Shown here: positions 10,770-59,399 of the stretch, piece after piece | How the letters are laid out: each line of letters starts with the position of its first letter | How positions within the stretch are numbered: position 1 is the first letter of the stretch | Source: Phoronis australis | Taxonomy: Eukaryota; Animalia; Phoronida | Length of the DNA: 64,000 nucleotides | Direction of reading: 5' to 3' | NCBI GenBank assembly: GCA_002633005.1 | Contig: NMRA01000805.1 | Span: 1-64,000, forward strand | Notes under the pieces: model-generated | What the model saw: only the letters and a program-made list of their open reading frames with translations | The model's database searches: none | Told to the model about the DNA's origin: nothing | Translations under genes and position numbers: made by a program

Positions 10770-13700
10770 GCACAGTCAGGGCTTTCCATAAACCCCTACT
10801 GCTTGCAAGCGGGATGTTGAAATTTAGCAGGAAATTCAGGTACCCTCAAACACTAGCCTTGTTTAGTCAAAAATCTGGTTGTTTGACACTCACTTTTCGC
10901 CCAATTTCTGTAAACTGGAAAGATTCAGGACAGTCTGAATGCATTTCTCTCAGTTGGGAGAAGTCGCCTGCAAACTGTGGTTTTGTGATGAAAACCAATG
11001 ATTTCATTTGTGTATTATTATTAGTTTTTTAAAGGACACGAAACCCTGTTTTTAGGATTTCGACCAATCCTCGTTCTGTCAGCTGCTAATGCACCATTGA
11101 AATCCCACTTGATTGATAAAAGCAGGTTTCAAATAAAAATTCATACTTCTTTTGTCACTGACAGACAAGATATTATGGCACTTGGTACGTGGAACGTCTT
11201 TTCCTACAGGTGTCGCATAACTCGCCTAAAGCGTAGATCACGCTTGCCCGTTTAGCAGACTTGGCTGAGAGATTTTCAGCTTTTCAGCTCGAAACATTTG
11301 AGGGTTGTCGGGTTACATAGCATTATTTTGTTTCAGAGGATTAGATGGGAACGTCGTTTTTAATATCTGTTAATAGGCCAACGTGGTGCCCTCGTCCGGT
11401 AGTTGCACAAAGTCGACTGCTCGATGAAGGCTGGCTCAGTTGAACGAGGCTTTACGCTCGTAAGTTTATATTCGTTATAATTTTACGCTCGTATTTTACG
11501 CATGTTATGAAGTGTTCAGAAAGTAAAAAGTATGGAAGTGCAAAAGGTTGAAACAATTTCGAAAACTGAGTCAGGAGATTTTTTGACCTAGCAATCTCAA
11601 GCATTTGAAAGTGATCCGTTTTAGTAAATATTCTGGTGTCAAAATATATATCTAGGAGGTTGTCTGACAATGCTTTTATTTTATTTGTTAAAATTATTGT
11701 GCTTTTTCAATATTTAGGCCAAGTTTCATTCTCTTAATCGTAACAGTGCGTGCCGAGATGACATGTGGCATTGCAAAAACATAGGTTCAAAACAGTTTTC
11801 GGGGGTAATGTAGAAGAACTTCTAAATGTTGGTGGTAAATCACTCATTCTTTATTCAAGACATTTGAAAAACAAGCCACTTTCACAACAAAACAATATCA
11901 ACTGCGTATTAGTTTAATCGCTGGTGTTCTCGTGGACTACTTGCTACAATTACGAACGTAAAATAATAATAATGTACGAGCGTAAAACTTCCTGACGTGG
12001 CCTTCAAATCAATTACTCACTGGATATAACGATTACGGTCGTAAAACACGAGCGTAGCCTAATTACGGGCGACTCTTTCCTCCGAACGGCCCACGATATA
12101 CTATATAGCAATGATATTCTCAAAGCAGGATCGGAGCTAAGGATCATACCATAAAACCCTGAAACCTGTTTGTGTGGAAGTACAGGATAAGCCAAAAGAA
12201 TCAAATATCGTGCCCGGTCATGACGATCAATGTCCGCTTGACTCGGGTCTAAGGCCACAGTAGAGGCCTGTGTAGCTCCCACAATGAAAGGAATAAAATG
12301 GGGTGGGTCGAGTTTGACGGCAGTTTTGTGGATTGTATGGGAAGTGTTTGTCACAAATGGTATTCAGTAGTTCATTGAAGTTGTTTTGAGTAAGGTAAGT
12401 TCAGAAATTTGGCCTGTGCTGTTGTCTGCTAGGTTACGTACGAGACACATATCCTTCTTGAGACTTGAATTCCTTGCCATGAATCCAGATAACCTTCAAA
12501 CAAGTGGAAATTGTCAAAAATCTAGTTGGTATATTTCAACCCAAATTTCTGGAATCTAGAGTGAAAGAACATTCGGATGGTGGTCTCTTTTCTTGCACCG
12601 GGGCAAATTTGTGATTTTAATTGAAATGTGAAAACAACGCACTTCTTTAGTTAGTATTGGTACCTCGAATTTTTTCACGGTGGGTGTAGCGAGGTAAAAA
12701 GACAAGACTAAGTTGATTTTCTTCATTTTTGGGAAACCCCATGAGTGTACCTTTTGTCAGTTTCGCCTTTTTAGGTGAACGAGACAGCTGTGCAAACAAG
12801 GGCTTTGATTGGCCCAAGACCATTGGTACTGTGGTTTCAGTCCTCGCCATACCGGATGTAATTCTCACAGATCCGGCTTCTGATGCCGCCAAAATAATCA
12901 CAGTAACTGCAGTGACCGAATTACAATGTACTATATGTTTACTGCCCTAAGCGACAGGATGTCAATAACTTGATTATCGTCGCACACTACGATTTATTGC
13001 CGTAAGCTAAGTTTTAGAACCGTAAAAAACGCTGTCGGGCATTTTTGGGTGTTACGTCGCCTGGGTTTTTGGGGCACGGGTTTTTGGGGCACCCGCATTT
13101 TCCAATTCTACTGTAAAAACAACAACAACAAAAACACTGTCAGGCATTTTTGGGTGTTATACATCCCGTTCGGCAAAAAACGCTATCGGTAGTCTTCTGT
13201 TTTTTGCAGCGAATATTTCACCCTTACGTTTTGATTAAGACCCACATGTCCAGCTTTTCATCTTGAAGTCCCGCTTTTCAATCCAATTGCTCCGTTTTTT
13301 CGTTCTTGAATGTTGACCGTGACAACTATGCAACAAGTGTTCAAAATAACATTGTCTCTTTTTATGAATATTGTTATTTTCCAGAGTCCGCTTTCTTTAC
13401 TAACATAACGATCGTAATCTGTGTTCCAATGTCTCTTGTTTACGGCAACGTACACTACTGAAGAAAATAGTTTAATTTAAACTTTTATGTAAAGTCCTCC
13501 ACTGCAACCAATGTGATGAGCTATCTACAGTACTTTTCAAAGCTAGGTGAGAGATGTTTGCCCATTTTTATCTATCAGGAAACCTTTATCTGCAAATTTC
13601 GGATAGTTTACTTGGAGTAGTTTATCGCATTTTTCGTAAATATCGCCGCGTTCTAAATTTTTATTGAATGAAGAATGCAGTAGTTGTATCAACCGCACCA

Positions 13701-18638: not shown

Positions 18639-18725
18639 TGACTTTTTAAATTAAAATGACGCGGGAAGAGTGTCTTTAAACAAATCAACCAAAATCAACG
18701 TAATTGCCATATACGAAAACGTCTT

Positions 18726-19305
18726 TTGTTGTTTATTTGTTTTTGTATTGAAGGCCTCTGACCCAAAGTACAATAAACAAAACAATCAGGCACATTTGCA
18801 CAAGCAGTCAACCCATTTAAGAGTTGTTCTCGTCTTTTAAGGGCAAAATACACATATTTAACAGCAGATATATCTGGATTAGCGAGCAGGCGTATACAGG
18901 ATTCTTGAGTTGGATGCCTCCATTGAACTTCCTTCATAAAACGTGACCTAAGTTCACAATATCCCTTGCAAACCAACAGGAAATGGTATTCATCCTCTAC
19001 AAGACCATCATTGCAAGCCATACATAATCTATTGTAATATTCCACTTTCTCGTGTCTACCCACTTCCACTTGTAGTCTGTGGTTGGAGCAACGTGAACGA
19101 GTAAACGCTTGAATAAGACTATTGTGTAGCGGTAACTTAAGATATGGTTCAAAACAGTACAGAGTCTTAAAGTTAGAGTAGAATTTAAGTTTTGCATTAT
19201 GCTCAATTTCTGATCGCCAACCTTGCTCATAACAGTCATTAACTCTTTGCGCGAAGAAACTTAAAAACGAGACTTCGCACGTGACACCTTGATTCAACCA
19301 GAAAA
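18726..19305 (-). mobile_element. 5'-truncated non-LTR retrotransposon (ORF2 C-terminus with CCHC knuckle)
   Basis: Translation WLNQGV...QRVNDCYEQGW...RCSNHRLQVEVGRH...RLCMACNDGLVEDEYHFLLVCKGY is typical of LINE ORF2 C-termini. A-rich tail. 10-bp target-site duplication AAAACGTCTT at 18716-18725 and 19306-19315. Confidence 0.85.
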
Positions 19306-19475
19306 AAAACGTCTTCTCTTGCAATGGAAACTGTTTGTGAAGGCCAATTAGTATTCTGTTTACTGTCACTGCACTGACAATTCTTATTAAAGTCGCAAGA
19401 AAACATCATAAACTGCCACTACAAGTTCAATAATATATCTTCATACTCCTAGCCTGGAGTATGGAGTCACAATCC

Positions 19476-20417
19476 CTAAAGTTCTACGGTTGCATACGGC
19501 GCACGGGATTTCATAAGACCCTCCGCAATTTCTTTCAGGCTTTTCCCGCAAATAGGGTGAACCAAACACGGTTCCAAGTCCGCTAAAGGAACTGCAACAT
19601 GGCTGTAGACGATGGCGTCGTTATGGGGTAATGCCTGTCGCTTCTTTTTCACCACACCTTCTTCTTTCCATACCCTTTCGAATTCAGAGACCCGTTTTCC
19701 CCAATACGAGATGTCAATGTCCAGAGCAACCAAAATTTGATTCCAATCGCTGGTGTTTCGCTGCCTCCCCACTTTGTCTTCAATCGACTGCAATTGGGTT
19801 TTGAAGGCTACTGGGTCCTTTTTTGTGATTAGCTTAACTGCCATGTTCAAATAGTCCATTTCGCCCTGGGCATTAGATGCCGCCTCTGTTCTAAAGACTC
19901 TCGATACACCCAGGACAGTCGTTGAAGATTTTAACATTTCTAAGGCGTCCCTAAGATTTTCTTTCGCATTGGCGGTGTTCGACCCAAGAGACAAATAGAC
20001 GACTGGTTGAGGATAGTCGCAATATTCTCTTTCGATGACTACCCCCGTCGTTTCTGCCTCCGGTATGGCGTGTGGCTTGTTGACAAACACTCTCGTCCAC
20101 GGAACGTTGAATAAGACTATTATTATTCCAGCAATATCTTCTACCATTTTCTCTATTAAGTTGAACTTGTTGCTTTTCACATAATTGGAAACCGCAGTAC
20201 AAACTGTTTCGTAATTTGTACACAATTGCGGATTATCTTCGTCAGCGGATGTTTTCACGTTCGTGGCAATATGCATAGTGATGAAGACCTCCTGAAATTG
20301 TCCAATTTCATGGGGGTAGTACCCAATCTGTGTCGAACATTTAAGATTTTTCACATACAGCATATCACGTATCTTATCCATCGTGTCCTGAAATGAATTA
20401 ATAGTCACTGCATCAAC
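19476..20417 (-). CDS. folB-folK: Bifunctional dihydroneopterin aldolase / 6-hydroxymethyl-7,8-dihydropterin pyrophosphokinase (FolB-FolK fusion), main exon
   Basis: N-domain (about 20025-20381): IGYYPHE, TNYE, FNLIE, PWTRVFVNKPHAIPEAETTGVVIER, matching FolB with catalytic E/Y/E/K. C-domain (about 19500-20003): VYLSLGSN, DYLNMAV, IEDKVGRQR, LDIDI, LPH, PLADLEP..VHP, matching FolK/HPPK. Acceptor tttctacag precedes 20417 in phase 0. Confidence 0.9.
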   Translation of the reverse strand, partial: VDAVTINSFQDTMDKIRDMLYVKNLKCSTQIGYYPHEIGQFQEVFITMHIATNVKTSADEDNPQLCTNYETVCTAVSNYVKSNKFNLIEKMVEDIAGIIIVLFNVPWTRVFVNKPHAIPEAETTGVVIEREYCDYPQPVVYLSLGSNTANAKENLRDALEMLKSSTTVLGVSRVFRTEAASNAQGEMDYLNMAVKLITKKDPVAFKTQLQSIEDKVGRQRNTSDWNQILVALDIDISYWGKRVSEFERVWKEEGVVKKKRQALPHNDAIVYSHVAVPLADLEPCLVHPICGKSLKEIAEGLMKSRAPYATVEL

Positions 20418-21177
20418 CTGTAGAAACCAAGACCCTAAACCCAATCTCCGAACAAGAGTTCCTGACTAACTTCCATATTAATTTCTTTCTTTGGTTACAT
20501 TCGCAACATCATATCTTAGAAATAGCTGATGGGATTTATATGAGACTTTCATATACTAATGCTTTGGGCACTATTCTCCAAACAACTTGGACGTGAAAAG
20601 TCTCATCTTATCGTGGGCCCTTCAGTATTACGCTTATTTTTACGATCGAAAAATACGAGCGTAAAATTACGAGAGTAGCCCACATTTTCTTCAGAGCTCT
20701 CGTGATAAACAATGTGGTAATTACAGTCGCAAAACAGAAGCGAAGTCTCGGTCGTAATTACGAGCGTATGTACGGGCGACACTTTCCCTTGAAAGGCTTA
20801 TACTACGATTTTTTGTCCTAAAATCAGCCGGACATTTTAAAAACGAGGCCAGTGTAGCAACGTTTTTTCGTACCTCCAGGACAAAAGGATGCTTCGCTAA
20901 AACTGTCAGGTAGCCAAAGCCCGTTTCAATGAATTCAAATAAAAGTACCAAAAAACACACACAGCAGAGTTTGTTGTTTTATGGCTCTGGTGCAAAACTG
21001 GTCATGGTTGTACTACCAAATACTACAAAACTGCGTTCTTGGCCCTGACGCCGATTGTGTATCTCCAAAAACAGGTGAAATCTCAGTCACATGAAACTCA
21101 TCTCAAAAAGAACCGTTGCTACGCTACGTGCATATTCTATCATCAGACTTATTTCATTCACATGAAAAACTACTTAC

Positions 21178-21198
21178 TTCTACATCCGCTACATCCAT
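21178..21198 (-). CDS. folB-folK: Putative first coding exon of the folB-folK gene (MDVADVE)
   Basis: Minus strand reads ctataATGGATGTAGCGGATGTAGAA|gtaagta. A at -3 and G at +4, consensus donor, phase 0 in frame with the exon starting at 20417. Intron 20418-21177. Confidence 0.6.
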
Positions 21199-22937
21199 TA
21201 TAGTTCACTTTTAAGCTTCCACGGTATCAACCTCCCTAAAACTACCTCTTGTACAAGTGTACGAACCACCGAGATTTTGAAAAACATTTAGCATATACAT
21301 ATATATTATCTATCAATCTCGTCTGCAAACTAGCTCAGTTATCAGTTACCGGCTCCTGAATGATATACAGCCTAGGGTTGGGTAACGTAGAACTGACGAC
21401 AAGAGTCTTAAGTTCAAATGTGTACGTCATAATTGCTATCTAATGTATAACGTTCAGGCAACTTATGTCCATGTATGCAATTCAGCTGCAAAACATTCCC
21501 GGCAGAGTCGGCAGTAATTTTTGTCAAGGAACCGGCTTACAATATATTCCCCATCATGCTAACTTGCTAACTAAACCAGGAACTCCATTGCTGAGGCTAA
21601 TTGAATGGGGATGACTATACGCAGGCCAAATTATATGCATATATAACCAGTTCAAATCCCAAGCGATATCCCAAACCCAGAAGTCATTCCCCAGATATTG
21701 GTAAAGGAAATAATGAGACCAACTAAGTACTAAGTGGTATTTCTTCTAAAAGTTAGTTTCGAAGCATCGAAACTCTCCGAGAACGGATGTTTTGTGACTG
21801 TAAATACGTAAGCATAAACTGGATTAAGTTCGTTATGAGTGGCGCTAGTGTACAGTTGCACTGTAGGCGTGACAATTGCACTGCCTAGAAATCACACGAT
21901 TGGGGTACGTCTGGCATGGTGGCACTAAGTTTCGAAGCGGTAGGCATTATTAGAAGGTTCAGTGAGACAGGTTTGCTTGTATTTGTAAAAATGTTGGGAC
22001 TGAGAACAGTTCACTAGTTCAGCTTTAGGTACACTTTTTCTTCAAAATGGCGGCCCACATAGCAGTGTTGAATTTCGGTGGCAGTTAATAGGTTTCATTA
22101 AGAAAATGGCTCCTGCTGGGTTGGCTGGGCATATGATGCCTGCGAATAGAGATGAGCATTTGCGTGATCTTTTAGGCTGTTTTGAGCGAGAGATTGCCAG
22201 TTTTGTTGACCCCTTGACCCACATCATAGACTCAGTGGTGGCTTTTCATAACCTTTACTGCTTGCAAGCCGGAAGTTGAAATTTGGCAGAAAATTCAGAT
22301 ACAATTCAGACACTTTGGGTTTGCAAAAATGTAGCTGGTAGACACCTACCTTTCTCCTGATTTCCGTAATCTGGAGAGTTTTGGCCGTCGAACTTCATTG
22401 TCTGTCAGTTCGTCAGTAATCGCAGTGCAAATGGTGGCTTTGGGCCAGGATAAAAGCTGATGATGTTTGCTCGTTTTTAAAGTAGCCAGCTGCACTTCCC
22501 GTAGTCGTAAAAGATGGAAAATTGACGTTGTGCAGGGCACAACGCACGGTTCATATGTTCAGGTTTCGTACATCTTGTGGCACAGGCTGTTGGAGCTGCC
22601 AACTAAGACCTGTTTTTTCAAGACCAAAAACTGTTGCGTGCCACCCTTCTGTTTAGCGACTGAAAAATATGTTGCGATTTCAGATAGCCTTCAAACAACC
22701 TTAATAGCAAAAAATCTAGTTGGTGGCAACCTATTTTTACCATGGCCTGGAATCTTCAGGAAATTGGCATTCAGAATCTAGTGCCTTTAGCTTAGGTCTA
22801 ACAGTGACAGGGAAGTTGTGGTTGGGTTTACCTTTTGGACCTCGCATCCTCTTTCGGTGTTAGTGAAAGGGCCAAAGATATAAGACAGAATGAAGTTTCT
22901 GTGGCCATGCGTAGCGGTAGTAATGTGAAACGACTAA

Positions 22938-23591
22938 GGTGGCACTGAATAGTTAGGCTGCGGCCGCGGCCAATTTGCACTGCCAAAATATTGAAATTTT
23001 GGGGTAGGCCAAATGAGTTTGGGAGCATTTTGTAGGTGGGCATTGCACGTAGGCTCAGTGAATGTGGTTTGCTTGTATTTGTGAACATGCTGTGAATAAA
23101 AAAGGCCACTTTCTTGGCTGTAGCTGCACTCTTCTTCAAGATGGCGGCCCCCGGCTGCAATTGTGCATTGTTGGGTAGCGACCGAGAAATTGGCTGTGAT
23201 TTTAGGTAGCCCTCAAACAAGCAAGACTTGCCAAAAAACTAGTTGGTTGACAGTACTTTTGGACCACATATTCGGAATCGGTAGGAAATTTGCTTTCAGA
23301 CTAATGTTGGCTTTAGTCGTGCATCGACAGGGAAGTGGTGTTTTTGGGGTGAAAAGTGCCGATTTTGCATTTTTTTGCCCTTATTTTTCTTAGTCTAGCT
23401 TGGTTTTCAGTGGGAATGAAATGGTCAAAAATACAAGAAAGAATGAAGTTTCTGTGCTCATCTTCTGGGCTTTTTATGTGAAATAATTGAAAACATGCCA
23501 TTCTTTGCATCCTGTTTTTGACAGAGTGAAGAAAAGGTGACAAATCAAGTGACGTGTGTTTTGCTGGGCAAAACCCAGTGAGAACTGTTCT
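22938..23591 (+). repeat. Interspersed repeat family (inverted copy at 61440-62083; older partial copies at about 21920-22320, 8300-8480 and 10770-10870)
   Basis: Colinear reverse-complement similarity, e.g. GGTGGCACTGAA...GCGGCCAATTTGCACTGCCAAAATATT and GTCGTGCATCGAC.GGGAAGTGGTG...GGGGTGAAAAGTGCCGA. Confidence 0.8.
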
Positions 23592-24581
23592 GTGCCTCCT
23601 AACGACTCGACAGAGTGGAAGAAAGGCAGGGAGTTCAGTGACGTATGCACCGCCAAACCCAATGAGAACTGAACAGTGCCTCCATGTGCCTAATATGCAC
23701 CTAACTTTAAAGGCCTGCATGTCCTTACATTATCACCACCGTCCACTACTCACAGTGAGTGCTTGATCTCATGGATAATCCGAATACAAGCAATTAAAGG
23801 TTACTCGATTATGACTGCATGATAATGGCTTGATTACGAAACTATTACGTCATTAATTGAAAACGGTAACGACCTTACTCAAAACACGTTGGCTGCACAA
23901 GATGTGAACACAAGAGTTGCTCATCAACAGTATTTACACAACCAAACTTCAGTATTTTTATCGTAAATATTTTTATTCTGCCAAACATAGCATAATTTTA
24001 GTACATTTTAAACTTTTCGTTTTTAGCGTGCTAAACGTAGCGAAATGCAGCTTATTAATTCTAGATGGAAGTAACTATATCGTGTGTGAAAATTATGTCT
24101 AAAAATTTTAAAAAATAAATCAGTGATTATGTAAAACTCCGATCCAATTTAAAAGCAACTAATACAACGAGATTACGACGTTTCATATCGCCAATTAAAC
24201 ATTTAGCAATGTTTCTCAAGGTTTTAAATCTTAGGCCTGTTCAAAATTCCTGAATAATAGTTCGCCCGCCTTAAAGAATCTAGGAAAAAGATGAACACGA
24301 AAATTATATTCGACGAAAAGTGTTTTTCTGAGTCCACCATTCCATCAAGTTTACAGTGGGGACACATTCTCCCCTCTGTATCGAGACCACTCTGAAACCT
24401 TCCCTTAAAGCGGCTATAAAGTTAACCCCATCAACACTCACTAGCAAACTTGAAAAACTTCAGTACAGGACCCTGAAATGTTTTCCAGGATTTTGCTGCT
24501 GGGTGGAGGATTTGCTACTGAGGTCGGGCATTCCCTCACTTGGCATACCTTAGGCGTAAGCTCTCTTTTGTGGTGGGCCGT

Positions 24582-30807: not shown

Positions 30808-30876
30808 ATGATCAGGGCTATTCTGGTTTTCAACAATCATGGAAAGCCCAGGGTTTCAAAATTCTATGAATATTAT
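30808..30876 (+). CDS. AP3S1: AP-3 complex subunit sigma, exon 1
   Basis: MIRAILVFNNHGKPRVSKFYEYY, donor gtgagt; 69 nt. Confidence 0.95.
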
Positions 30877-31011
30877 GTGAGTATGTTTTACGTCGATCGG
30901 AAAACAAGTTGGTTGGCGACTCCGACGGAGACGAGTTCAGGGATATTATTCATTGTCACTGGTGACTGGGTCTAGGAATCGGATATTGTTTACTTTCAGA
31001 GATAAGATATT

Positions 31012-31160
31012 CCTGGCGTGTGTTCAGTAACGCTAGGGCCTACGCTAGGACCTAGGTAATATCTATCCAACGTCACGTGTTACCATTTAAATTACACGGT
31101 AACATCTCTCGTAGTCTTGCGAAGTTTTGCTTTTTAGTGAAGTCCTAGCATTACTGAACG
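31012..31160 (+). mobile_element. Copy of ~145-bp MITE family in AP3S intron 1
   Basis: GTTCAGTAACGCTAGG...ATTACACGG...AAGTTTTGCTTTTTAG...TACTGAAC shared with 63365-63510. Confidence 0.5.
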
Positions 31161-32575
31161 GGATTCTGGACTGTGCCCTTGCGCCATTTGTGCGTGAAAA
31201 AATAAAATGGCACAAGTACATTGCAACAGTGCGTACCGCAGGTGCATTTTTTAAAATGCAACACTCTTCCGAAGATGCAAGGTTCTAGTCAACTTTGAGG
31301 CAGTCATGTAAAACACGACTCTGTTCATCTTATTTCGATTGGCCTTAGGGTTTCAGTTTCATATCTTACCAATTTAATTACTCTCCCTTTGTCTGGTGAG
31401 CACAAGGTTTTGAAAAAGGCATACTTTCTATCATCAAACCTGGTCAGGAATATCCCTGTACTTTATGTATTTACAGTAATCCGTCTCCAAAAAGTGGCAA
31501 AATCTTGAATCACAGCATAGTCTGTTGATATGTTCTGAATCCTCTCTTTGTGTTGATTCCAAAATGGATAAAACACATTGATTGTTCTTTTCTTACTTCT
31601 GTGGAAAGAATTACTTTCAGTATGCTTTTAAGCATTTCCCATCAGCGTGGTCTCTATTGATAATAACTGGTCACAATCTGATGCCGTCACAAAATTATCT
31701 TTGACTATCCCTACTCTAACCCTAACCCTAGGAAGGGTAGCCTTATCCCTAAAGGGGAGGGGACACAAACCCTATGAAAGTGCAGATGCCCAATGGCTAA
31801 GATTGAAGACCAGACTTTCTTTTTCGTTGTGAACAGTGTAATATGTGTAATATTCAAGTCATTTTACAAAATACCGTAGTATAGTAAGAAACGACTTTTT
31901 CTGAAACTCTGAATAGACAAGGTCAAAGAATTTGATGTTTCTGGAATCAGCATAAAAAGAAGCCAGAAAACACTTTAGAATTAACAAGTGGCTACGATTT
32001 AATAGTCAATTTGTAAGCAATAACGGTGTTCCATTAATGTCAATTGTCTGCACTAGTCGAATAAAGCAATTTCTCATTTTGAGAATCAGGCAATCACTGA
32101 CCATTAATGTCATGAAGCAAAATCTCCTTGTCGCCTTTTGGCATGATGAAAACATGTCTCGTGCCTTTTGTAGTGTTATTAATTGGGTTAGTGTTCAAAA
32201 CCGCAAATGTTTTTCAAGCAGAATATTGCTTGGAAGACAATTTGGTTAGTATAATTGGAACAGCTCCACTATTAGTAATGACAAGTAGCATTTCATCATA
32301 AGAATATGTTTATTGATGACCCCCTCCCCCCTACTTTCTTGCTTCCTTTGAAACTTTCTAAAAAATATATGGCAGTTGAATCATTCATTGAAAGTTTCCC
32401 TCAGTTAGTAAATTTTAATTGAACTGTAAAGAATAACAATTAATTCCGAATTGTAGTTTATAAAACCAGACACAAAGTCCTACTGACAATCTAGGAGTGG
32501 GATATTTTGTGGATATCAACCAGAAATTCAATGTATGCTTGAAAATCATCTTTAAATTGTTGGCTCCTATTGCAG

Positions 32576-32667
32576 CCTGAAGATATGCAGCAACAGATAA
32601 TTCGAGAGACATTCCAGTTGGTGTCCAAACGCGATGACAATGTGTGCAATTTTCTGGAGGGTGGCAG
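32576..32667 (+). CDS. AP3S1: AP-3 complex subunit sigma, exon 2
   Basis: tgcag|PEDMQQQIIRETFQLVSKRDDNVCNFLEGG|gtacgt; 92 nt. Confidence 0.95.
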
Positions 32668-33460
32668 GTACGTATAGTATCAAAAACTTCCCTTAACAAG
32701 TAAAATATGTTATGCAAGAGTTTCACATGTTCCAAAGGAAATTCACTTCATACTCTATGCTATTTATATATTACGTTGCTCAACAAAATTTTACCCAGAA
32801 AGTTTCCTTATGATGAAAGAATAGTTTCCATGTCCAAACAGATAAAGTGTGTTCAATGGCCTTCAACTTGTCTGACCGGTATTGGGATGTGTAAATCAAT
32901 TGCATACTATTGCTCCCCCTTTTTATTATAAAAGGCAATTGCTATCATAGTAAAGTCATTTTTAGACCAGTTCAGTGTTCTCATTAAGATTAAAGTTGAG
33001 CTCGGTTTGAATGACGAAACGCTGTCAATCGCTGTGTTTGCATTTTAAGTTGCAAAGGGGAGACCACCGTTTTCTGTGTTCTGGGTGCGAAATTTAGTTA
33101 GGTAATAATTTCCAGCAAAATGTAGTGTACACTTGACTGAAGAATGTGATGGTTGTGACTCAACATCTTGCAGGTTGAGACCACTTAAAAACAAGTCTTG
33201 TCACAACTGGTGAGACAGTGGCTTAAAATTTGAGCGTGGGGTTCAGAATTTTGAGCATGGCCATCACATTCAAAAAGCCTGGAGAGAACAATGCAGTTTG
33301 TTGAAGATCAAGCTATTTGGTGATTTTCAAGCTTAGTCTACAAGTGTGAAGGAAATTGGGATTTTGACAAATGGGCAGTTGAATAGTGTGTTGTTGGTTT
33401 TGACTGTATTTCTATATTACTCAAGTGCCAATCATGTTTGTAATTTAATTGCCATTTCAG

Positions 33461-33572
33461 TTTAATAGGAGGCTCAGACTACAAGCTCATCTACAGACAC
33501 TATGCCACTCTTTATTTTGTGTTCTGTGTTGATTCTTCCGAGAGTGAATTGGGAATTCTTGACTTGATTCAG
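33461..33572 (+). CDS. AP3S1: AP-3 complex subunit sigma, exon 3
   Basis: ttcag|LIGGSDYKLIYRHYATLYFVFCVDSSESELGILDLIQ|gtaagt; 112 nt; hallmark adaptor sigma motif. Confidence 0.97.
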
Positions 33573-34590
33573 GTAAGTGACGTGGAGCCTCAGAAAACTG
33601 TTTCAGGTGGGTTTGTTTGTCTTGAAAAATCTCAGAAGTGTTTAGAATGAAGTCTTCTCTTCTTCTGATAGTCTCCAGCTTTCTTGAATTTACATTAACA
33701 CACTACAGTTTCTTTAAAATGCTGGTGAATCAATGATAAGCTTGTGTTTGCTAAGTAGGCAAAAGCTGATGTACATTTCAGAGACAAAAAATTGCAGGAA
33801 AATGCAAGATCACTCATTAAGTCTTCGTGAGATATCGCCATGTATTACAAACGAGGCATGTGATCAAATTTTGCTTCTTTCGCGAGTCTTGCATCTTTGG
33901 AACTCAGCCCTGAAATACGCTCTTCTACACTGTTCCTACACTGTGGTGCTGGACAGCAGCAATGGTGTGTTAACAGCCAGTTTTGTTTGTCCTAATGGCA
34001 AATCGAACCTCAGCAATGCACATGTCCACAATATCATCCATCATCTTGAATATGTAATTAGGTAAAGTAAACAAACCAATTCACTCATTTACCATGTAAG
34101 TGGATTGGGGGGAGAAAGCTGTTTGAACCTGTATATCAACTAGATTGTGAAAACGTTGCTATAAATCTGTCGTTCCCAAAATATTCACCATTATTACAAA
34201 GTCCTTTTTCCAGCTGAGAACCACATTTAAAATGGTTGGTGATTTTAGTATTAATGTGGGTATTTGCAAGGCCAATCACGTTTTTACCAAGTCCACCTAA
34301 GGTCAGTTGTGTCGATAAAGTATATTAAAATTATACTTTTTGGTCATAACGTCCCTTCGTCAGTGATGTAGCACATTAAGGGAGTGAGTTACGGAACAAA
34401 TATTGCCTTGTAACAGACTTTAGATGTGTTATGATCTTGTGTCTGTTATGTTTGCATCTTACGCTTGTGCTCACTGCTGACAAAGGGAGGTTATGCACAG
34501 AACTATGGGTATTTTGATTTGATATAGGAAGTACTGTGTCACTGTTAAACTGAATATTATTGGAGCTCTTGTTTACTCCCTCTGTTTTAG

Positions 34591-34662
34591 GTGTTTGTTG
34601 AAACCTTGGACAAGTGTTTTGAGAATGTCTGTGAACTGGACCTCATCTTTCATGTAGACAAG
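34591..34662 (+). CDS. AP3S1: AP-3 complex subunit sigma, exon 4
   Basis: tttag|VFVETLDKCFENVCELDLIFHVDK|gtaagc; 72 nt. Confidence 0.97.
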
Positions 34663-36612
34663 GTAAGCACCACTGTCGATGATTCAGTCCGAGTATGCCC
34701 ACGAATGGGGGAGTTGTGGGTGGGGGGAATTCTGTTGTTTTGGTGCGCACCTGGTTACAGCTAATTAGAGTCCATACTGTGAAACTGTGATGTTTGACAG
34801 TTTCTCCTGCCAGTGTTGAGGTGAAATGTAGAGGGCTGGGTGGATCAGCTTGATCAATCTGACTGCAGAGCTTTGTCTGAGTTGAGCAAAGATACAACTT
34901 ACCATGTCTTATTGTGTCTGTTGTTGTGTAGTGTGTAAGAAGATCAGACTTGTGGGTTTGATGTTTTGTAAAAAATAGAGATGAGTTACTATTAAGCAGT
35001 TCCAGTCAGAAGTTCATTGCTTGGTAGACGCAGTTGTCATTTTTAAATCTTTGCTGACACACCCAGTATGTGCCGAGTTTATGGTGATCAAACAAAAGTT
35101 GATATTCCCCACCACTCTGATGGTGAATCCCATTTGCACATGGCCGTCATGACGGGGGGCCCTCTACCTTTGCTTAGCTGTCGTCATTACTTTTGGCTTG
35201 TACTGTATAATAGTTATGAGTCTTGACCGCACAAGGTTCAAATAAGGTGTCTCATAGGTTATCAAAATTCTGAATTAGATGATTTGCTTTTATTCATGAA
35301 GCCTTTCTTGAGAATGAGTAGTTTGCACTTGATCCTCGAAACTTTGTGGTGATTTCGGCACAACACCAAACATGACTTAGAGCATGTTCGTCTGGCCAAA
35401 AGTTCCATTATATTTTGGCACTTTATTTTGGAACAGTTTTGTAGACCTTTTGGGAACTTTCCTTGCGCATTTTAGGCTCTGAAATATTACTTTTTTTACA
35501 CTCCTTTTTTGAAAAAGTCAGAAGGGTCAGTGTCTGAGTGTCTGATCAAATAGTAATAAATCCAATCAGAATTGAGGAAATCACATGCAACTTGAATAAG
35601 GTGCACCTATTTGGTAGATTATGGTAATCATCTATGTTCACTATTTGAGCAAAGGTCAAAAGGTCGAAATCGAAATTGAGGTTAATGGGTATGAATTGTC
35701 AACAGTTTAAATTACATCAAGCAATGCCTCTCCTGTTCCGATAAATAAGAAATAAATAGTGTTGTATAACATGTAATCTCCTTTATAATCTGATGTTTGG
35801 TGGAGATTTGCGGCTGTTTTTCAGCTAGTACTTTGAAACCACATGCCCATTCAGTCATTGTCCATGGAAGAAAAATGCTGGTGAGACCAGTAAGGCAACC
35901 AACGACTCTGCGGGTGGCCGGCTAAAAGTGAATCCTGAAATTGTTACACTTTCATGACTGCTTTGCTGCAGTCACCAGGTGGCGAGACCATCTTGCCCAA
36001 GAACTGCCAAACAACCTGTCATGGAAGTTGACAACATTTCATGCATCAGCTCAAAGTAGTTCATCATGGAGACAGTTTATAAGGGAAGCGAAAGAAATGA
36101 AGCCCAGTTTTCAGGAACACACAAATGGTTGCTTGCCAGTGTCTTTGATGCCTGACATGGCAAGATGATGTCATGCTTGTGTTCAACTTCAAGACATCTG
36201 AAAATAATGCATTTGGTGCCATGTAGAAATAACTCTGACCAGACATCAGTAGGATAATACACGCTAGTGTTGACTCTCAAAGTAAATGGCTTTGGCGTGT
36301 CTTTGTTGTGATATCAGTGTGTGGTACTGGCACCCTCTGTTGGCAGTGATGAAGGCTTCAATCTTCTCAAGGACCAACTGTGTGTTTGTTATCTCGGCAG
36401 TGCACGGATTGTTGAGGTTGTATATCACAGATGTGATTCACCGCTAGGGGGTGCTGTTGATCGTCAACGAACTGAATGTATGAAATCTCCATGGTGACCA
36501 GAGGTCATAACTCGTAGATGTAATTGACCACTAGAGGGCACTATTATTCATTTCTATGTTGCTAGTGCTGTGGTGTTGCTCTACAGGATATCTTGTTGCT
36601 GTTCATTGACAG

Positions 36613-36720
36613 GTTCACTGGATCCTCGCTGAGCTGGTCATGGGGGGTATGGTGTTAGAGACAAACATGACAGAGATCTGTACAAGGATAGATGAACAAA
36701 GCAAACTGGAGAAAACAGAG
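36613..36720 (+). CDS. AP3S1: AP-3 complex subunit sigma, exon 5
   Basis: gacag|VHWILAELVMGGMVLETNMTEICTRIDEQSKLEKTE|gtaggg; 108 nt. Confidence 0.95.
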
Positions 36721-36971
36721 GTAGGGGGCGTATGTGTGTGGTGTACTGGGAGTCACGTTAGGCTTGATTTGTCTGGGTACAAGGTATCATGGCTGAATTC
36801 AGACTTCAGTCAGAATGAATTTGTGTGGAGCTCTCTAGTACCGTGACAAAGGTGCTACCTAAATGTTGAATAATTTTGACATCAAGTGCGTCAGAGTTTG
36901 TCCAGTTTATTTCCAAAACTATAATAGTATATGCACAAAAAAGCTTCTTAAATTGGCTAAAGCTCTGGAAC

Positions 36972-37065
36972 CTCAAGTGAAACTCTTGTCTCTTTCTTAT
37001 ATTCACTAATATATTTTCTCAAGTGAAACTCTTGTCTCTTTCTTATATTCACTAATATATTTTCT
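36972..37065. repeat. 46-bp tandem duplication
   Basis: CTCAAGTGAAACTCTTGTCTCTTTCTTATATTCACTAATATATTTT twice. Confidence 0.9.
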
Positions 37066-38899
37066 GTCATCTGACCGTTGTTTCAGTAGTTCTTCTTTTA
37101 TTCAGCACACAATATGGCCGACAATTGAATTATTCTGTTTTGTTCAATTTTTGTTAAAGTTCTCATTGTTTGCAAAAAGGTAAGCTGCCATTGAAAATAA
37201 AAAATAACAACTTTGGCAGTTATTTTTGTGCAGAACAAGTGGAGAATTACTGTACATTCATCTTTGCTGCTCTACTTTTCTTGCACCCTGTCGTTTTGCT
37301 AAGTTTTAGTCTCATCGCACCCTGTTGCTCTGATGTGACATACTGACAAGGTTGTCTGTTTCTTTAAATCTTAGTCTTCAACAGCGACTGGCAGGATAAT
37401 GTTATCACTGCAAGCCTCTGCACAATTTGAGTTTGGGTACAGTTTCGCCAGTTTCTCACCAAAACAAATGCCAAAATGCCCTTGTTCCATTTTTCAAAAG
37501 CTTGTAACCTTGTTATGAGTGTCCATCATTTTTTGAAATATTGTCTGATGGTGACTATGGAACAGATTATAGAAAATGGTAAAGCATTGGTTTGGTGGTA
37601 ATTTTCCTTCATTAAAAATTCGAGAAGACAGAAGCTTCACTTGTCTGCCATATTGTGTTTTGAGTTGGTGAGACTACCATTTTAATGATGTTGTCTGCCT
37701 GACTTTTTTGTGATTATGTTTTTGCGATGACTGAGTTGTATGCAAGTCACATTCTTATACCTAGGTCCACTAAGAGTTATGAAAAAGCAAAATTTTCAAT
37801 GATCGAAAATTTACAATAATAAAACCTTCACAGCTGTCACTGTAGTGTAAAAAATCCACTTTATTTGCTTTACGGTAAATTACTTGTCATGACACAGGGC
37901 AACTATGACAGTCAATGCTACTAACACTCAACAGTCTTATTGTGGAATTTCACTTGCGCTCAGCCGTCATGATGTGGAAAAATGGGCCATTTTGTCTAAT
38001 TTTTTAAAAATTGTTTTGGCTTTTACTACATTTCTATAACAAAACGTCAGTGGAGTGCCCCTTTGTATTATCCACTGATGAACATGTCATTGAGAGGTTG
38101 ATCTAAGACTTCAACTTTAAGCGTAGATTTATTTTTGCATGTTTTCTCTGTTGTCTCCGGGTTGGTAAGCGGGCTGGAAGGCCAGCCCAGTGCTGAGCAG
38201 TACCACCAGGGGGAGTATGTCGCCTACCGATATCTCCATGATAAGTGCCACCCGCAGGAAAAACGGAGACTGTGTGCACCGTCTGACTCACAGTTACACA
38301 CGTAGCTCGTCCGGTATGTAGAGGGATGCTGCGCCTTATGCAACAGTGCTTGGTGCTCGCACGCCTCTGCAGGCATGTTGTCGGCTGTTCAACAGGCGGC
38401 GCTTTGCATGTTCAAAAGCACTGTGTTTGACATGGGACTTGACCAGTATAGATCTTGCAATGAAGACGGCGCATTCCACGCCATGGCAAAGTTTGATAGG
38501 TTAATTATCTGGATGTTCTTGCGTGGGGAATTTAACGTCAGCTAAGTGCAATGTTATGCTACAGCAAGTTTCCACTTGGGATCCGGCCCGTTACTCGTCA
38601 ATCATAACGTGGGAGGGGCTGTCAGTAACAATGTAACCGCTCTTTCACTGTGTATGTGGAACACCTTTCTTATGCTCTTCTACCTTCATTCACGCCTACC
38701 TCTTAGCATACACTGAAGTGCACAGTCAGCGCATCCCTCTACATTAAAGTTTCAAAGGAGCAAACTTTCGTTACCTGCCAACATATACAAATATTGTCGG
38801 TGCATTATGTCCTCGTCTTTGCCTGTTGGACGTTCCCTGCAGTATCTCCAAAACCCCTTGGTCACTGATGAATTTTCATGAACGTTTGCATACATGTTT

Positions 38900-39960
38900 T
38901 CATTATGGATGGGATGGCATGAGCGAATTTTCAGACGGATCCTACTACGGGTGTGCTCCCTAGTGTTAATGTTATTTTTTTTCGTTTGCCTCTGTATCTT
39001 CGGGCGGCCTTGATGGATTTTCATTTAATTTGGCAAATAGGTATCTATTAAGGAGCACGCTTCACTTTCCATTATTTGGATGAGATCAACATATTCAGTA
39101 CGATCTATTGACCATTTTTCGAATTCACCTCTCTATTGGCCAAACCACTTTGAGGATCAGTATGAAAATTGGTTCATGCGTTCCTGCTTGAAAGAGCACG
39201 ACTGATGATTATTTTTGGACGGCTGTGAATTCTGTGGCGTACCCTAGTGGCATTTTTTGTGTCTTTGTCTGTATCTCCTAAACCCTGCGTAGGGTCTTTA
39301 AGGTGACAACAGATCATGATGACTTTCGCTTCCAACTACCACAGTGCCCCCTATTGATAATTATACCGGGTAGTGTTACATTTATATTTTCTGTATCTGG
39401 AGTTTCTTAAGGAATTTTCTTGCAATTTGGGAATAGGTTAATCTGTTAAAAGAAACAACGACACCTTCCCGTTTTCAGATGTATTTGACCTAATATAGGT
39501 CATCTAGTTGCCACTGTTATCATTTTATTGAGTCTGGTTTTTAGCATCTACCTGTGTATCAGCCAAACCACTTTAAGGATCATTGCTAAGATTAGCATTT
39601 TGCTGAGGCGATGCATGGCTGACGATGATTTTTTATGGATCCAACTGCTGTGGTTTCCAATTTTTTGCTTATGGCTTGTTATCTACAAAGTTGTTTGATG
39701 GATTTTGAGTGCAATTCATCTACTGTTTTCTCTGCGTTTGTCTTGCAAGCTCCTTGATTGATGTTCGTGAAATGTGGCAAATAAATTACCACAACTGAGG
39801 TGACTGCACAAGCCTTCTTTCAGAGGGATATGATCTTCATTGTGCCCCCTAGTGGCCTTTTTGTTGTTTTTGTGTCTTCTTTATTTTCCGTCTTGCTAGC
39901 CTTCAAACTGCATTAAAAATCCAAAACGATGTATGGCAGGTGTGCTCCTATTTAGGAGAG
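38900..39960 (+). repeat. Degenerate central repeats of the HINE/DINE-like family (also in the duplicate at about 41454-42240)
   Basis: CCCTAGTGG, AAATTTGGCA-like and CAAACCACT.TAAGGAT blocks shared with 8600-9640 and 10130-10680. Confidence 0.6.
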
Positions 39961-42900
39961 CATAGCTGTCTTTTTCAGCCCCTACAGGGTATTTTAAGTT
40001 TACTGGCGTTGCTCCCTTTAGTGAGAATATTTAAACAATGATCATCCCTTGTTTCTGCACTGTATGCGATGCGCACAGTGGATTGATATCAGTGCTCTGC
40101 GTTGTAACAAGCTTTGAACCGTGAATAAAATTTTATGACTCAGAGAAACCGGAACGTTGAAATATCGAGTGTCAGGTGCATAGATAAGAATCAATGTGCA
40201 CAAACGTTCAATAGCTGTTACCAGTTGTTTTGCATTGATCTGAATAGTTCCATTATTTTGTGTCTTTCGTATGATAAGGTTCTAATCACACCTCTTGAAT
40301 CATGATTCTGACCTTCCCAAAGCAAGCTTTCCTCTTCCTAAACAGTACAATTCACGCCAAAAGCAACTGAGCACAAAACTTTGTTTCTCTGTTATGACGG
40401 CTTACACCCTTCACTGCTTGAATGACACAATCAACTGCCATTGCAGCTAATTTCTAATAAAAGAATATCGTTTCCACCTTGCTCACCTGCTGGAAAATTC
40501 CTGTTCGTTACCGCTGACTATGGACGTCTGCTCTGACGATGGTTTTGGTTTCCGACTAACAGTCATGATGGGAAGTCTGGGTCATATTGTCGGAATACTT
40601 TTTGGCATGTACTATACGTTTGTGTCCTCAACATCTTTCTCCAACTCTCCTCTCTCTCCATTGATTGGATACTTCACCGTTACCATTTGAATGGATGCCA
40701 GAATGTCTGGTCATTGCATAGCTTCTGTAAGAACAATTCCTGCTTGCTCGAATTTCTTCATTGTCTACTGCCATTGTATGGTGTCTGAAAGAAGCATCAA
40801 TGTTAATGTGTTGGACATTTCATGCTTTTGGAAATATGAGGAAGCAATGTGGAAACTATACAAAACCAAGTGTATGCATGAGACTGTAAATGTACCTAGG
40901 TTCATTTTCTTATGGAAACTTTGACTGGTCAGGACTTTGTCACATCTTACAGTACTCTTCAGGATTTTGTGGTTGGGTGTTGAGGTTTAGTTTACATACA
41001 CTATCAGTATTCACTATTGTTTACCTCTGCATGACTTATATGTTGTCTATTTTAGTTAAATATTGTCAGTTAGCTATTACGTCATGCCAATCTACCGCTA
41101 AGAGATTTATTTGAGGATAGTGATATCCAACTTATATGAAGGGCTTAGAGTTAAGCCAGCATTCGGCTTGTAAATGTCAGACTTGTACGAATTTTACTAC
41201 ATTTTCTTTTGCCATTATCGCTGTTATTGCAAAGGTGTTGGTGTCTAGTTGTCACGGTAACCAGCCTGTGACCTTTTCATTTGATTACAGCCCGGCATAT
41301 CTAGTTGTAACCAACCTGTGACCTCTTCATTTGATTACAGGCCGGCATATCTAGTTGTAACCAACCTGTGACCTCTTCATTTGATTACAGGCCGGCATAT
41401 CTAGTTGTAACCAACCTGTGACCTCTTCATTTGATTACAGGCCGGCATATCTNATTGGTTCATGCGTTCCTGCTTGAAAGAGCACGACTGATGATTATTT
41501 TTGGACGGCTGTGAATTCTGTGGCGTACCCTAGTGGCATTTTTTGTGTCTTTGTCAGTATCTCTTAAACCCTGTGTAGGGTCTTTAAGGTGACAACAGAT
41601 TATGATGACTTTCGCTTCCAACTACCACAGTGCCCCCTATTGATAATTATAGTGTTACATTTATATTTTCTGTATCTGGAGTTTCTTAAGGAATTTTCTT
41701 GCAATTCAGGAATAGGTTTCTGTTAAAAGAAACAACGACACCTTCCCGTTTTCAGATTTATTTGACCTAATATAGGTCATCTAGTTGCCACTGTTATTAT
41801 TTTATTGAGTCTGGTTTTTGGCATCTACCTGTGTATCAGCCAAACCACTTTAAGGATCATTGCTAAGCTTAGCATTTTGCTGAGGCGATGCATGGCTGAC
41901 GATGATTTTTTATGGATCCAACTGCTGTGGTTTCCAGTTTTTTGCTTATGCCTTGTTATCTACAAAGTTGTTTGATGGATTTTGAGTGCAATTCATCTAC
42001 TGTTTTCTCTGCGTTTGTCTTGCAAGTTCCTTGATTGATGTTCGTGAAATGTGGCAAATAAATTACCAGAACTGAGGTGACTGCACAAGTCCTCTTTCAG
42101 ATCGATATTATCTTCATTGTGCCCCCTAGTGGCCTTTGTATTGTTTTTGTGTCTGTTCTTTATTTTCCGTCTTGCTAGCCTTCAAACTGCATTAAAAATC
42201 CAAAATGATGTATGGCAGGTTTGCTCCTATTTAGGAAAGCATAGCTGATGTGATTTTCAGTCCCTACAGGGTATGTTAAGTTTACTGGCGTTGCTCCCTT
42301 CGGTGAGAATATTTAAACAATGATCATCCCTTGTTTCTGCACTGTATGCGATGCGCACGGTGGATTGATATCAGTGCTCTGCGTTGTAATAAGCTTTGAA
42401 CCGTGAATAAAATTTTATGACTCAGAGAAACCCGAACGTTGAAATATCGAGTGTCAGATGCATAGATAAGAATCAATGTGCACAAACGTTCAATAGCTGT
42501 TACCAGTTGTTTTGCATTGATCTGAATAGTTCCATTATTTTGTGTCTTTCGTATGATAAGGTTCTAATCACGCATTCTGACCTTCCCAAAGCAAGCTTTC
42601 CTCTTCCTAAACAGTACAATTCACGCCAAAAGCAACTGGGCACAAAACTTTGTTTCTCTGTTATGACGGCTTACACCCTTCACTGCTTAAATGACACAAT
42701 GAACTGCCATTGCAGCTAATTTCTAATAAAAGAATATCGTTTCCACCTTGCTCACCTGCTGGAAAATTCCTGTTCGTTACCGCTGACTATGGACGTCTGC
42801 TCTGACGATGGTTTTGGTTTCCGACTAACAGTCATGATAGGAAGTCTGGGTCATATTGTTGGAATACTTTTGGCATGTACTATATGTTTGTGTCCTCAAC

Positions 42901-43667
42901 ATCTTTTTCCAACTCTCTTCTCCCTCCATTGATTGGATACTTCACCGTTACCATTTTAATGGATGCCAGAATGTCTGGTCATTGCATAGCTTCTGTAAGA
43001 ACAATTCCTGCTTGCTCGAATTTCTTCATTGTCTACTGCCATTGTATGGTGTCTGAAAGCATCAATGTTAATGTGTTGGACATTTCATGCTTTTGGAAAT
43101 ATGAGGAAGCAATGTGGAAACTATACAAAACCAAGTGTATGCATGAGACTGTGAATGTACTTAGGTTCATTTTCTTATGGAAACTTTCACTGGTCAGGAC
43201 TTTGTCACATCTTACAGTTCTCTTCAGGATTTTGTGGTTGGGTGTTGAGGTTTAGTTTACATACACTATCAGTATTCACTATTGTTTACCTCTGCATGAC
43301 TTATATGTTGTCTATTTTAGTTAAATATTGTCAGTTAGCTATTACATCATGCCAGTCTACTGCTAAGAGATTTATTTGAGGATAGTGATATCCGACTTAT
43401 ATGAAGGGCTTAGAGTTAAGCCAGCATTCGGCTTGTAAATGTCAGACTTGTACGAATTTTACTACATTTTCTTTTGCCATTATCGCTGTTATTGCAAAGG
43501 TGTTGGTGTCTAGTTGTCACGGTAACCAGCCTGTGACCTCTTCATTTGATTACAGGCCGGCATATCTAGTTGTAACCAACCTGTGACCTCTTCATTTGAT
43601 TACAGGCCGGCATATCTAGTTGTAACCAACCTGTGACCTCTTCATTTGATTACAGGCCGGCATATCT
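39168..43667. repeat. ~2.2-kb direct duplicate (39168-41452 / 41454-43667) joined by a single N; probable uncollapsed alleles
   Basis: Colinear copies with SNPs and small indels; N at 41453. Confidence 0.8.
43523..43667 (+). repeat. 50-bp VNTR containing the AP3S exon-6 splice acceptor (3 units here, 4 units at about 41258-41452)
   Basis: Unit AGTTGTAACCAACCTGTGACCTCTTCATTTGATTACAG|GCCGGCATATCT. Acceptor AGs end at 43555, 43605 and 43655, and at 41290, 41340, 41390 and 41440. Confidence 0.9.
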
Positions 43668-43778
43668 GCTGCACCAGCGCGGGCGGTCAATGCAGTGAAA
43701 GACATGAACTTACCACAGAAATTCAAGGACATCAAGCTACCGGATTTACCATCCATCGGTAGTATAAAGCTTCCATAG
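43656..43778 (+). CDS. AP3S1: AP-3 complex subunit sigma, exon 6 (terminal)
   Basis: tacag|AGISAAPARAVNAVKDMNLPQKFKDIKLPDLPSIGSIKLP*. The APARAV.AVK.MNLP motif is typical of sigma-3. Total CDS 576 nt. Confidence 0.93.
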   Translation, partial: AGISAAPARAVNAVKDMNLPQKFKDIKLPDLPSIGSIKLP

Positions 43779-58797: not shown

Positions 58798-58974
58798 AGT
58801 GTAGTACTGAGTGTAGCATGTGACACATGTGCCCCCCCAAGGATGTCATCAACTAGATTTTGAGAAATGATATGTTTGAGAAATGATATGCCTATCGTGT
58901 TTTCATCAAAACCACTATTCGTGCACTTTGTTGCATAATCGATTGAATTCAGCGTTTATCTATTGTTTTTCCAG

Positions 58975-59399
58975 AAGCCATGACAACGGGGAACCAGTAT
59001 TATCTCTCGCCCAATAACGTGGTAAAGAAATCGTCAGATGACAACCTACGCACACTATCACTACCTCCAATGCCCTCTTCGTCGTTAGCTGCGTCTTATT
59101 CAGAGCTGACGAGACGTTGGAAAAAGCCTCCCGTGTCAGGGAGTCGCAGTAGCAGTCACACAACTATCAAACGGAGCAAAAGTTGCGACACGGACAGAAT
59201 CGTGCGAACAATAAACCTCAAACTGGAAATTAAACCGTCTGACATTCGCCAGCTGAACTGCGGTGATGGGAAAAAGATGAAGTCCGTGCTCTCGCGAGAT
59301 CGTTCCCCAAAAGTAAGTGTGGAGGCTTTGGATTTGGCGAAATCCAAAGCATTACAGACTCGAGAGAAGGAAAGGAAGAAAGTGTCTTTTGCAATTTGA
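58975..59399 (+). CDS. Terminal exon of an orphan basic, Ser-rich protein ending in KKVSFAI (RVxF motif)
   Basis: Acceptor ttgtttttccag at 58974, GCCATG at 58980, 139-aa non-repetitive ORF, AATAAA at 59449-59454. Confidence 0.55.

Follow-up and report, generated by a model that had tools for sequence, protein, structure and literature searches.

A bacterial-type FolB-FolK fusion gene of Phoronis australis lies among host genes and is spliced as a host transcript

This locus carries a gene of bacterial type, encoding a FolB-FolK fusion, that is expressed in an animal. The gene lies on the minus strand of a 64,000-nucleotide stretch of Phoronis australis DNA, which is called the window here. 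A preliminary description had read the locus as a domestication, with a gained 7-codon first exon, a 760-nt intron and a TATA-driven start placed ahead of a bacterial-like start codon. The coding sequence and its domains are as follows.

19476..20381, minus strand: intronless coding sequence of a 301-residue FolB-FolK (DHNA-HPPK) fusion; the exon starts at 20387 (Pfam, RNA)
20031..20357, minus strand: FolB (dihydroneopterin aldolase) domain (PF02152, Pfam 1.6e-22)
19569..19997, minus strand: HPPK domain (PF01288, Pfam 2.1e-21)

Both domains scored above their Pfam cut-offs (80.6 bits against 31.8 for PF02152, and 76.9 bits against 25.7 for PF01288), and Pfam detected no folP domain in the protein. 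The AlphaFold model of the 301-residue protein had a pLDDT of 93.9, and its top fold match was the bifunctional DHNA-HPPK of Streptococcus pneumoniae (2cg8, presumably SulD; E 1.5e-21, 19% identity), with a T-fold rmsd of 0.8-1.4 to DHNA chains. An exact look-up of three start variants of the protein found them absent from the protein collection, and the ESM Atlas yielded only generic bacterial FolB-HPPK clusters, at 0.90.

The transcript structure was examined in three raw-read RNA runs (X1, X2 and X3) of one study, which carry the same species label and of which about 19% each was read; the library selection is given as 'unspecified'. The features of the 5' region that emerged are the following.

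23754..23799, minus strand: non-coding exon of 46 nt that opens the main form, with an approximate 5' end (junction reads, molecule ends)
20388..23753, minus strand: main intron, 3366 nt, GTGAGT...TTTCAG (14 junction reads, loose ends)
22350..22659, minus strand: optional non-coding cassette exon, 310 nt (two 7-read joints, depth bump 14.6/8.1)
21178..21247, minus strand: minor exon ending at donor 21177 and reaching at least 21247 (5 X1 reads)
20388..21177, minus strand: minor intron as spliced, 790 nt (5 X1 junction reads)
20388..20417, minus strand: 30 bases intronic in all forms observed (0 of 26 reads use 20418, depth drop)
21292..21308, minus strand: AT-rich TATA-like stretch, within the main intron (sequence and RNA)
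20608..20800, no strand assigned: degenerate dispersed-repeat fragment in the intron (sequence)

All 26 junction reads that entered the coding exon in X1 and X2 used the acceptor AG at 20388, while acceptor 20418 was used by none of the 26, joints being listed from at least 3 reads, so that a joint with one or two reads could escape listing. The junction 23754>20387 was covered by 14 reads (10 in X1 and 4 in X2), 23754>22659 by 7 (3 and 4) and 22350>20387 by 7 (5 and 2), and the junction 21178>20387 was covered by 5 reads with 5 different starts in X1 and by none in X2 or X3. The share of donor 21177 was 5 of 20 reads in X1 and 0 of 6 in X2, and 21 of the 26 junction reads came from exons further upstream than this donor. 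The four introns (23753-20388, 23753-22660, 22349-20388 and 21177-20388) have GT-AG ends and are removed in the RNA, indicating that they are spliceosomal (U2-type). In addition, sense depth between 20394 and 20514 was 0.6 and 1.9, compared with 27-30 in the adjoining bin. The junction counts are small (26 reads in two runs of one study); for these RNA runs, we regard the exon model as valid with near certainty.

The 760-nt intron that had been proposed between 21177 and 20418, with an expected RNA-seq junction 21178->20417, was therefore not observed in any of the 26 reads, and its donor joins 20388 to give an intron of 790 nt. The motifs on which the proposal was built are all present, namely the ATG at 21198, the seven codons and GTAAGT at 21177, followed after 760 nt by an in-frame AG that ends at 20418. 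By itself, this pattern is not beyond chance: of the 31 GTAAGT sites that the window contains, 8 are preceded within 60 nt by an ATG in phase 0 with no intervening stop, and the open reading frame is in register with three AGs, whose ends are at 20466, 20418 and 20388. The donor at 21177 is real, with 5 reads, but it is minor and was seen in one run only (X1). With no listed joint at acceptor 20418, the predicted acidic N-terminal extension of 19 residues is not supported, and the form that uses donor 21177 would add 9 residues in its place. Nor do the reads support the 7-codon exon as the first exon of the gene: most transcripts begin with a non-coding exon another 2.6 kb upstream. The suggestion that the TTG at 20444 is intronic held in every observed transcript form. 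The locus shows that splice calls made from motifs alone can place the donor correctly and yet be wrong about the acceptor and overlook the main first exon.

The longest short side among the reads of the minor exon is 70 nt. This exon holds ATG 21198, the use of which would account for the 9 additional residues and which has an A at -3 and a G at +4; three further ATGs (21300, 21294 and 21287) would precede it if the minor exon begins above them. It may serve as an alternative first exon or lie internally in a transcript, or it may represent an intermediate of splicing.

We placed the start of the main transcript near 23800, because six molecule ends in X1 fall at 23799 and sense depth is about 0.1 past 23820; a 5' end that rests on six fragment ends is approximate. 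Loose read ends at 20387 (12 in X1 and 10 in X2) matched window positions 23754-23783 exactly, and the first-exon form is for this reason probably undercounted. A trans-spliced leader was considered as the source of these loose ends and was discarded on the same exact match. A first exon borrowed from another expressed gene was likewise discarded, as there were no sense reads in X3 and no other joint was listed. Sense depth over the coding sequence was 23-49 in X1 and X2 and about 0 in X3; the gene is thus expressed from the minus strand in two of the three runs, active in some samples and silent in others. Over the unique parts of the main intron, sense depth was mostly 1-6 in X1 and X2 and absent in X3, which fits pre-mRNA. 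No poly(A) tail was found among the loose ends listed at the locus, and the contigs of X4 did not cover the gene. Among the differences between reads and assembly that were listed, three fell in the coding sequence (two synonymous and one missense), and none breaks the frame.

The 5' untranslated region has an ordinary exon structure and ordinary splicing. The main first exon contains an in-frame stop 7 codons ahead of the junction. It also opens a uORF of 6 codons in another frame, the stop codon of which straddles the junction and precedes the ATG at 20381 by 4 nt. The cassette exon at 22350..22659 adds three further upstream ATGs, and both of its splice sites fall within or border on dispersed repeats (22240-22442 and 22654-22823). 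The AT-rich, TATA-like stretch at about 21292-21308 is present as described, but as the promoter of the gene it is misplaced: since the dominant first exon lies upstream, the stretch falls inside the main intron, and it could at most be a candidate promoter of the minor exon. No TATAWAW was found in the 80 nt before 23799. The sequence TGACGTAA occurs at about 23852-23845 on the minus strand, some 50 nt upstream of the mapped 5' end, and we take it to be a CRE/ATF-like site.

The intronic repeat at 20608-20800, which had been matched to a second copy at about 11950-12100, is real, but it is short (about 45 columns) and degenerate. The motif TACGAGCGTA was found at 20654, 20759 and 11975; the local match of about 45 columns to about 12035-12080 scored 37, compared with 28 for the best of 300 shuffles, and a reverse copy near 11430-11520 scored 41, compared with 25 for the best shuffle. 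A dispersed element of about 660 nt, present as inverted copies at 22938-23596 and 61439-62083 (75% identical), occupies a portion of the main intron, where it collects reads on both strands that stem from copies elsewhere. Past the 3' end of the coding sequence lies a further repeat.

18695..19369, minus strand: multi-copy element fragment with a 224-codon open frame (read loose ends; no Pfam hit)

This fragment is presumably LINE-like, resembling the 3' end of a non-LTR retrotransposon ORF. The 3' untranslated region appears to run into it, and the first AATAAA past the stop codon is at 18737, at the fragment's end.

A neighbouring multi-exon host gene in the window is divergently oriented.

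30808..43772, plus strand: AP-3 sigma subunit (AP3S) gene, six coding exons found (Pfam)

The last AP3S exon matched molluscs at 28-32 of 39-41 residues and a scorpion at 32 of 40, compared with 17 of 35 in Branchiostoma; echinoderms gave 21 of 36 and the sea anemone 17 of 43. In exon 1, Branchiostoma matched at 16 of 23 and bivalves at 19 of 23. By this gene, the host of the window is likely a protostome, and amphioxus was rejected as a candidate host. The preliminary description had also argued that the FolB-FolK gene is expressed by the host and is not contamination, and this was borne out: the minus-strand transcript is spliced at GT-AG introns from upstream host sequence in two of the three runs, which identifies the gene as a host gene. 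Transcription by Pol II and polyadenylation are what spliceosomal splicing would lead one to expect. FolB-FolK is, then, a host-integrated gene of bacterial type, which shares its contig with host genes and has its transcript processed by host splicing.

We next consider its relatives. A profile search (HMMER, 1.84 billion representatives) returned Branchiostoma belcheri as the best match (XP_019639203; 38% identity, 1.6e-50), followed by a cluster of 290-residue proteins (5.5e-37), Lingula (1.5e-29) and Sphaeroforma (5e-29); the octocoral Paramuricea clavata is a member of the cluster of another match. Word-index searches returned fusions of 288-300 residues at 33-40% identity, the named ones from Chloroflexota, and no animal homologue among 14 matches or among the best 120 of 293. 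The best 23 genome loci among the matches listed were all from Chloroflexota, mostly Anaerolineae; the patterns used to sample bacteria came from an alignment rich in Anaerolineae. A recent domestication confined to this lineage is doubtful, given the homologues in amphioxus, a brachiopod, an octocoral and an ichthyosporean; the gene is not a lone recent capture and belongs to a known, little-studied animal family of horizontally transferred genes.

A folB-folK fusion of Branchiostoma floridae was described as a likely horizontal transfer from prokaryotes, located on a host contig and transcribed in B. belcheri (Maguire 2014, PMC4224340, in the parts of the paper that deal with this gene). The same parts of that paper name Planctomyces as the nearest bacteria, note a doubtful Nematostella copy of folB-folK and the missing folP, describe animals in general as lacking folP, and leave open why amphioxus keeps only the first half of the pterin branch of the pathway (PMC4224340). 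Our search for other reports on the animal FolB-FolK family found none besides Maguire 2014; subscription journals lay mostly outside this search, and the supplements of Maguire 2014 may record more animal members. The Branchiostoma fusion has the same two-domain architecture without folP and belongs to the same gene family as the window protein, but the two share only 38% identity, the window host is likely a protostome, the nearest bacteria of the window protein are Anaerolineae instead of Planctomyces, and amphioxus keeps the HPPK Pro-Arg motif that the window protein lacks. For B. belcheri, RefSeq has two predicted isoforms, with a difference of 12 residues at the N terminus. What is apparently new here is a protostome member of the family, an Anaerolineae sister group without folP (0 of 8) and the loss of the HPPK Arg92 position. 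The prevailing view is that the pterin branch of folate synthesis is missing from animals. The window presents a second, RNA-validated case in another animal lineage.

The window, amphioxus and Lingula proteins have in common an insertion after an LDI/LDL-D-I-S-x-W motif. Lingula has paralogues with complementary decay, one being FolB-only and the fusions having a degenerate FolB together with a His at the Arg92 position. In the octocoral cluster, 14 metagenome-called proteins end at 187-190 residues; going by their sequences, these ends may mark an intron inside the coral coding sequence, whereas the window coding sequence is intronless. A short-chain reductase is fused to FolB-FolK in Sphaeroforma, in an MMETSP transcript and in two other proteins, and we suggest that this reductase is pteridine-reductase-like.

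The fusions of Anaerolineae (Phototrophicaceae, Aggregatilineales) match the window protein over its full length at 33-40% identity, with the same domain order and a shared HVAVPLA-type C-terminal motif, but they keep Arg92 and do not have the 10-residue insertion of the window protein. Their start Met aligns with residue 5 of the window protein (Arg5-Asp6) and not with Met1, and MDKI, which had been taken for a bacterial-like start, is therefore not the old bacterial start. The bacterial gene often stands beside folE, which adjoined it in 6 of the 10 loci with neighbours scanned (44 proteins, a subset of 99 ORFs). A DHPS (folP) match was found in none of the 8 nearest Anaerolineae genomes, compared with 13 of the 14 controls and both of the 2 relatives that are more distant; since completeness of the metagenome-assembled genomes is not reported, the missing folP may partly reflect incomplete bins. 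The folP-less relatives have folB and folK, and folC was present in 5 of the 5 tested; an enzyme may thus be missing from the known route by which these bacteria make folate or pterins.

Trees were built under LG+G4 without inferring a root. The full-length tree comprised 56 rows. Of the 23 closest fused Anaerolineae loci, 13 were used in it; two partial proteins entered the FolB tree but not this one. A group of 22 rows, made up of the window protein, the animal and eukaryote copies, four further or MMETSP proteins and the 13 Anaerolineae fusions, was recovered at 100/99 and stands apart from FOL1. Fungal and amoebozoan FOL1 combines the same two domains in a eukaryote, but with folP added and often with a doubled folB, and common descent of the window protein with fungal FOL1 was rejected (p-AU 0.0018). 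In the FolK tree, the unfused, adjacent folB/folK genes of other Anaerolineae are sister to the fused group (98/94), which favours a bacterial origin. These results support the view that the FolB-FolK gene is very probably of bacterial origin, and the transfer likely came from an Anaerolineae-related bacterium, long ago.

We then asked what the protein could do. The FolB residues E25, Y57, E77 and K102, which we take to fill the active-site Glu, Tyr, Glu and Lys roles of the aldolase, are kept, as they are in 115-119 of 119 homologues, and in the alignment Y57 stands at the Tyr53 position that is altered in 7su4. In the HPPK domain, E201, R206 and R208 (the HPPK Glu77, Arg82 and Arg84 positions), the Mg-binding Asp pair D221/D223 and H253 are kept. 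However, Val218 lies in an expanded loop where E. coli has Arg92, which is part of the Pro-Arg-Thr motif that precedes the Asp pair. Catalysis requires Arg92, and its equivalent is Arg in 97 of the 109 homologues with the motif; since the other 12 of 109 are also without it, the loss is no proof of an inactive HPPK. From its residues, the domain is best called HPPK-like and of doubtful activity. FolK and FolP are joint signature genes of folate synthesis, and DHN aldolase also epimerises its substrate to dihydromonapterin, as given in the relevant sections of De Crecy-Lagard 2007 (PMC1971073).

Overall, the explanation that we favour, with a probability of about 0.7, is an old Anaerolineae-derived, spliced host FolB-FolK gene with its main start near 23799, working as an aldolase outside folate synthesis. 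The main transcript would start near 23799 and splice to 20387, and translation would begin at 20381 to give the 301-residue protein. The uORF-bearing 5' exons might tune translation, and donor 21177 would give a minor form with 9 extra residues. Host GTP cyclohydrolase I could supply dihydroneopterin, which the FolB domain would cleave or epimerise, the HPPK domain being weak or inactive. As no dihydropteroate synthase is expected to follow, the product would feed a pterin pigment, cofactor or salvage route. That aldolase activity is the selected function is our prediction, held with some confidence, and the role would be a FolP-independent one in pterin metabolism of particular tissues. Because folP also appears to be absent from the nearest bacterial relatives, the fusion may at no time have been part of classical folate synthesis. 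As a bolder extension, which we offer tentatively and consider rather unlikely as a whole, a single transfer from Anaerolineae-related bacteria may have brought a folP-independent pterin module, joined by a reductase in some protists, into early holozoans or animals. It would survive in corals, lophotrochozoans and amphioxus and produce a non-folate pterin not yet described in particular tissues, and in this protostome the kinase half would be off and alternative 5' exons with uORFs would tune the output.

Four other readings were weighed against the old, spliced host aldolase. The motif-based model (a 7-codon first exon, a 760-nt intron to 20418, a 19-residue extension and a TATA-driven start) draws on in-frame motifs, a canonical donor used in five reads, the favourable context of ATG 21198 and a slight rise of sense depth at 21241-21361 (7.5 and 4.6, compared with about 1-6 nearby). 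Yet no read uses 20418, the five donor reads go to 20388 and depth over 20394-20514 stays below 2; the model is refuted as the main form in these RNA runs and is very improbable. Gain of an intron in the 5' untranslated region has been reported for domesticated genes (Kordis 2011, PMC3257199, in the portion on such introns), but for transposon-derived genes of mammals and chordates and not for bacterial genes. Bacterial contamination or a chimeric assembly, at which an intronless coding sequence with bacterial homologues might hint, is next to inconceivable given spliced reads that join the coding sequence to upstream host sequence, sense coverage across the 3.4-kb intron, and the repeats and multi-exon AP3S gene that flank it.

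A transfer from Anaerolineae specific to this lineage, separate from those of amphioxus, Lingula and corals and with the 5' exons built here, would agree with the best full-length tree, in which the window protein pairs with the 13 Anaerolineae (61/53, unsupported) and the animals do not form one group; the 38% identity to amphioxus is like the 33-40% to bacteria, and the coding sequence has no intron. However, neither a single clade of the 4 animals (p-AU 0.27) nor one of 9 eukaryote and other rows (p-AU 0.43) was rejected, the FolB-domain tree groups all 10 eukaryote and other rows (80/86), the insertion is common to the window, amphioxus and Lingula proteins, and the long branch of the window protein (0.95) implies long residence in any case. 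We rate this separate transfer as possible, on the unlikely side. In the last reading, the DHNA and HPPK activities are both intact and supply folate synthesis, which symbionts or a putative DHPS substitute would complete. Both domains exceed their cut-offs, the Asp pair, E201, R206, R208 and H253 are kept, and all five folP-less relatives tested keep folC; an alternative folP step was raised for Branchiostoma in the passages of Maguire 2014 on the pathway (PMC4224340). Against this stand the loss of the Arg92 position with its loop insertion, the decay of Lingula paralogues in one or the other domain, and the improbable export of a phosphorylated pterin, and we consider the reading decidedly unlikely. 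Phosphorylated pterins are unlikely to be exported from cells, and the S. pneumoniae DHNA-HPPK works in a complete folate pathway.

Elsewhere in the window, a Pfam scan of 294 ORF stretches returned only the AP sigma exons and one sub-threshold match. A 150-codon serine/lysine-rich open frame at 58947-59399 (plus strand) ends in KKVSF, presumably a PP1-binding-site-like end; this frame had no Pfam hit and was absent from the protein collection (tested ATG). In the AP3S intron before the last exon, a segment of about 2.27 kb is duplicated in tandem (39168-41651 and onward), with 96-98% identity; the duplication may have arisen recently, or the assembly may have created it. A degenerate repeat family occupies 8641-10700 and 38900-42150, and its CCCCTAGTGGC core, in our estimation, resembles a CTCF-type motif.
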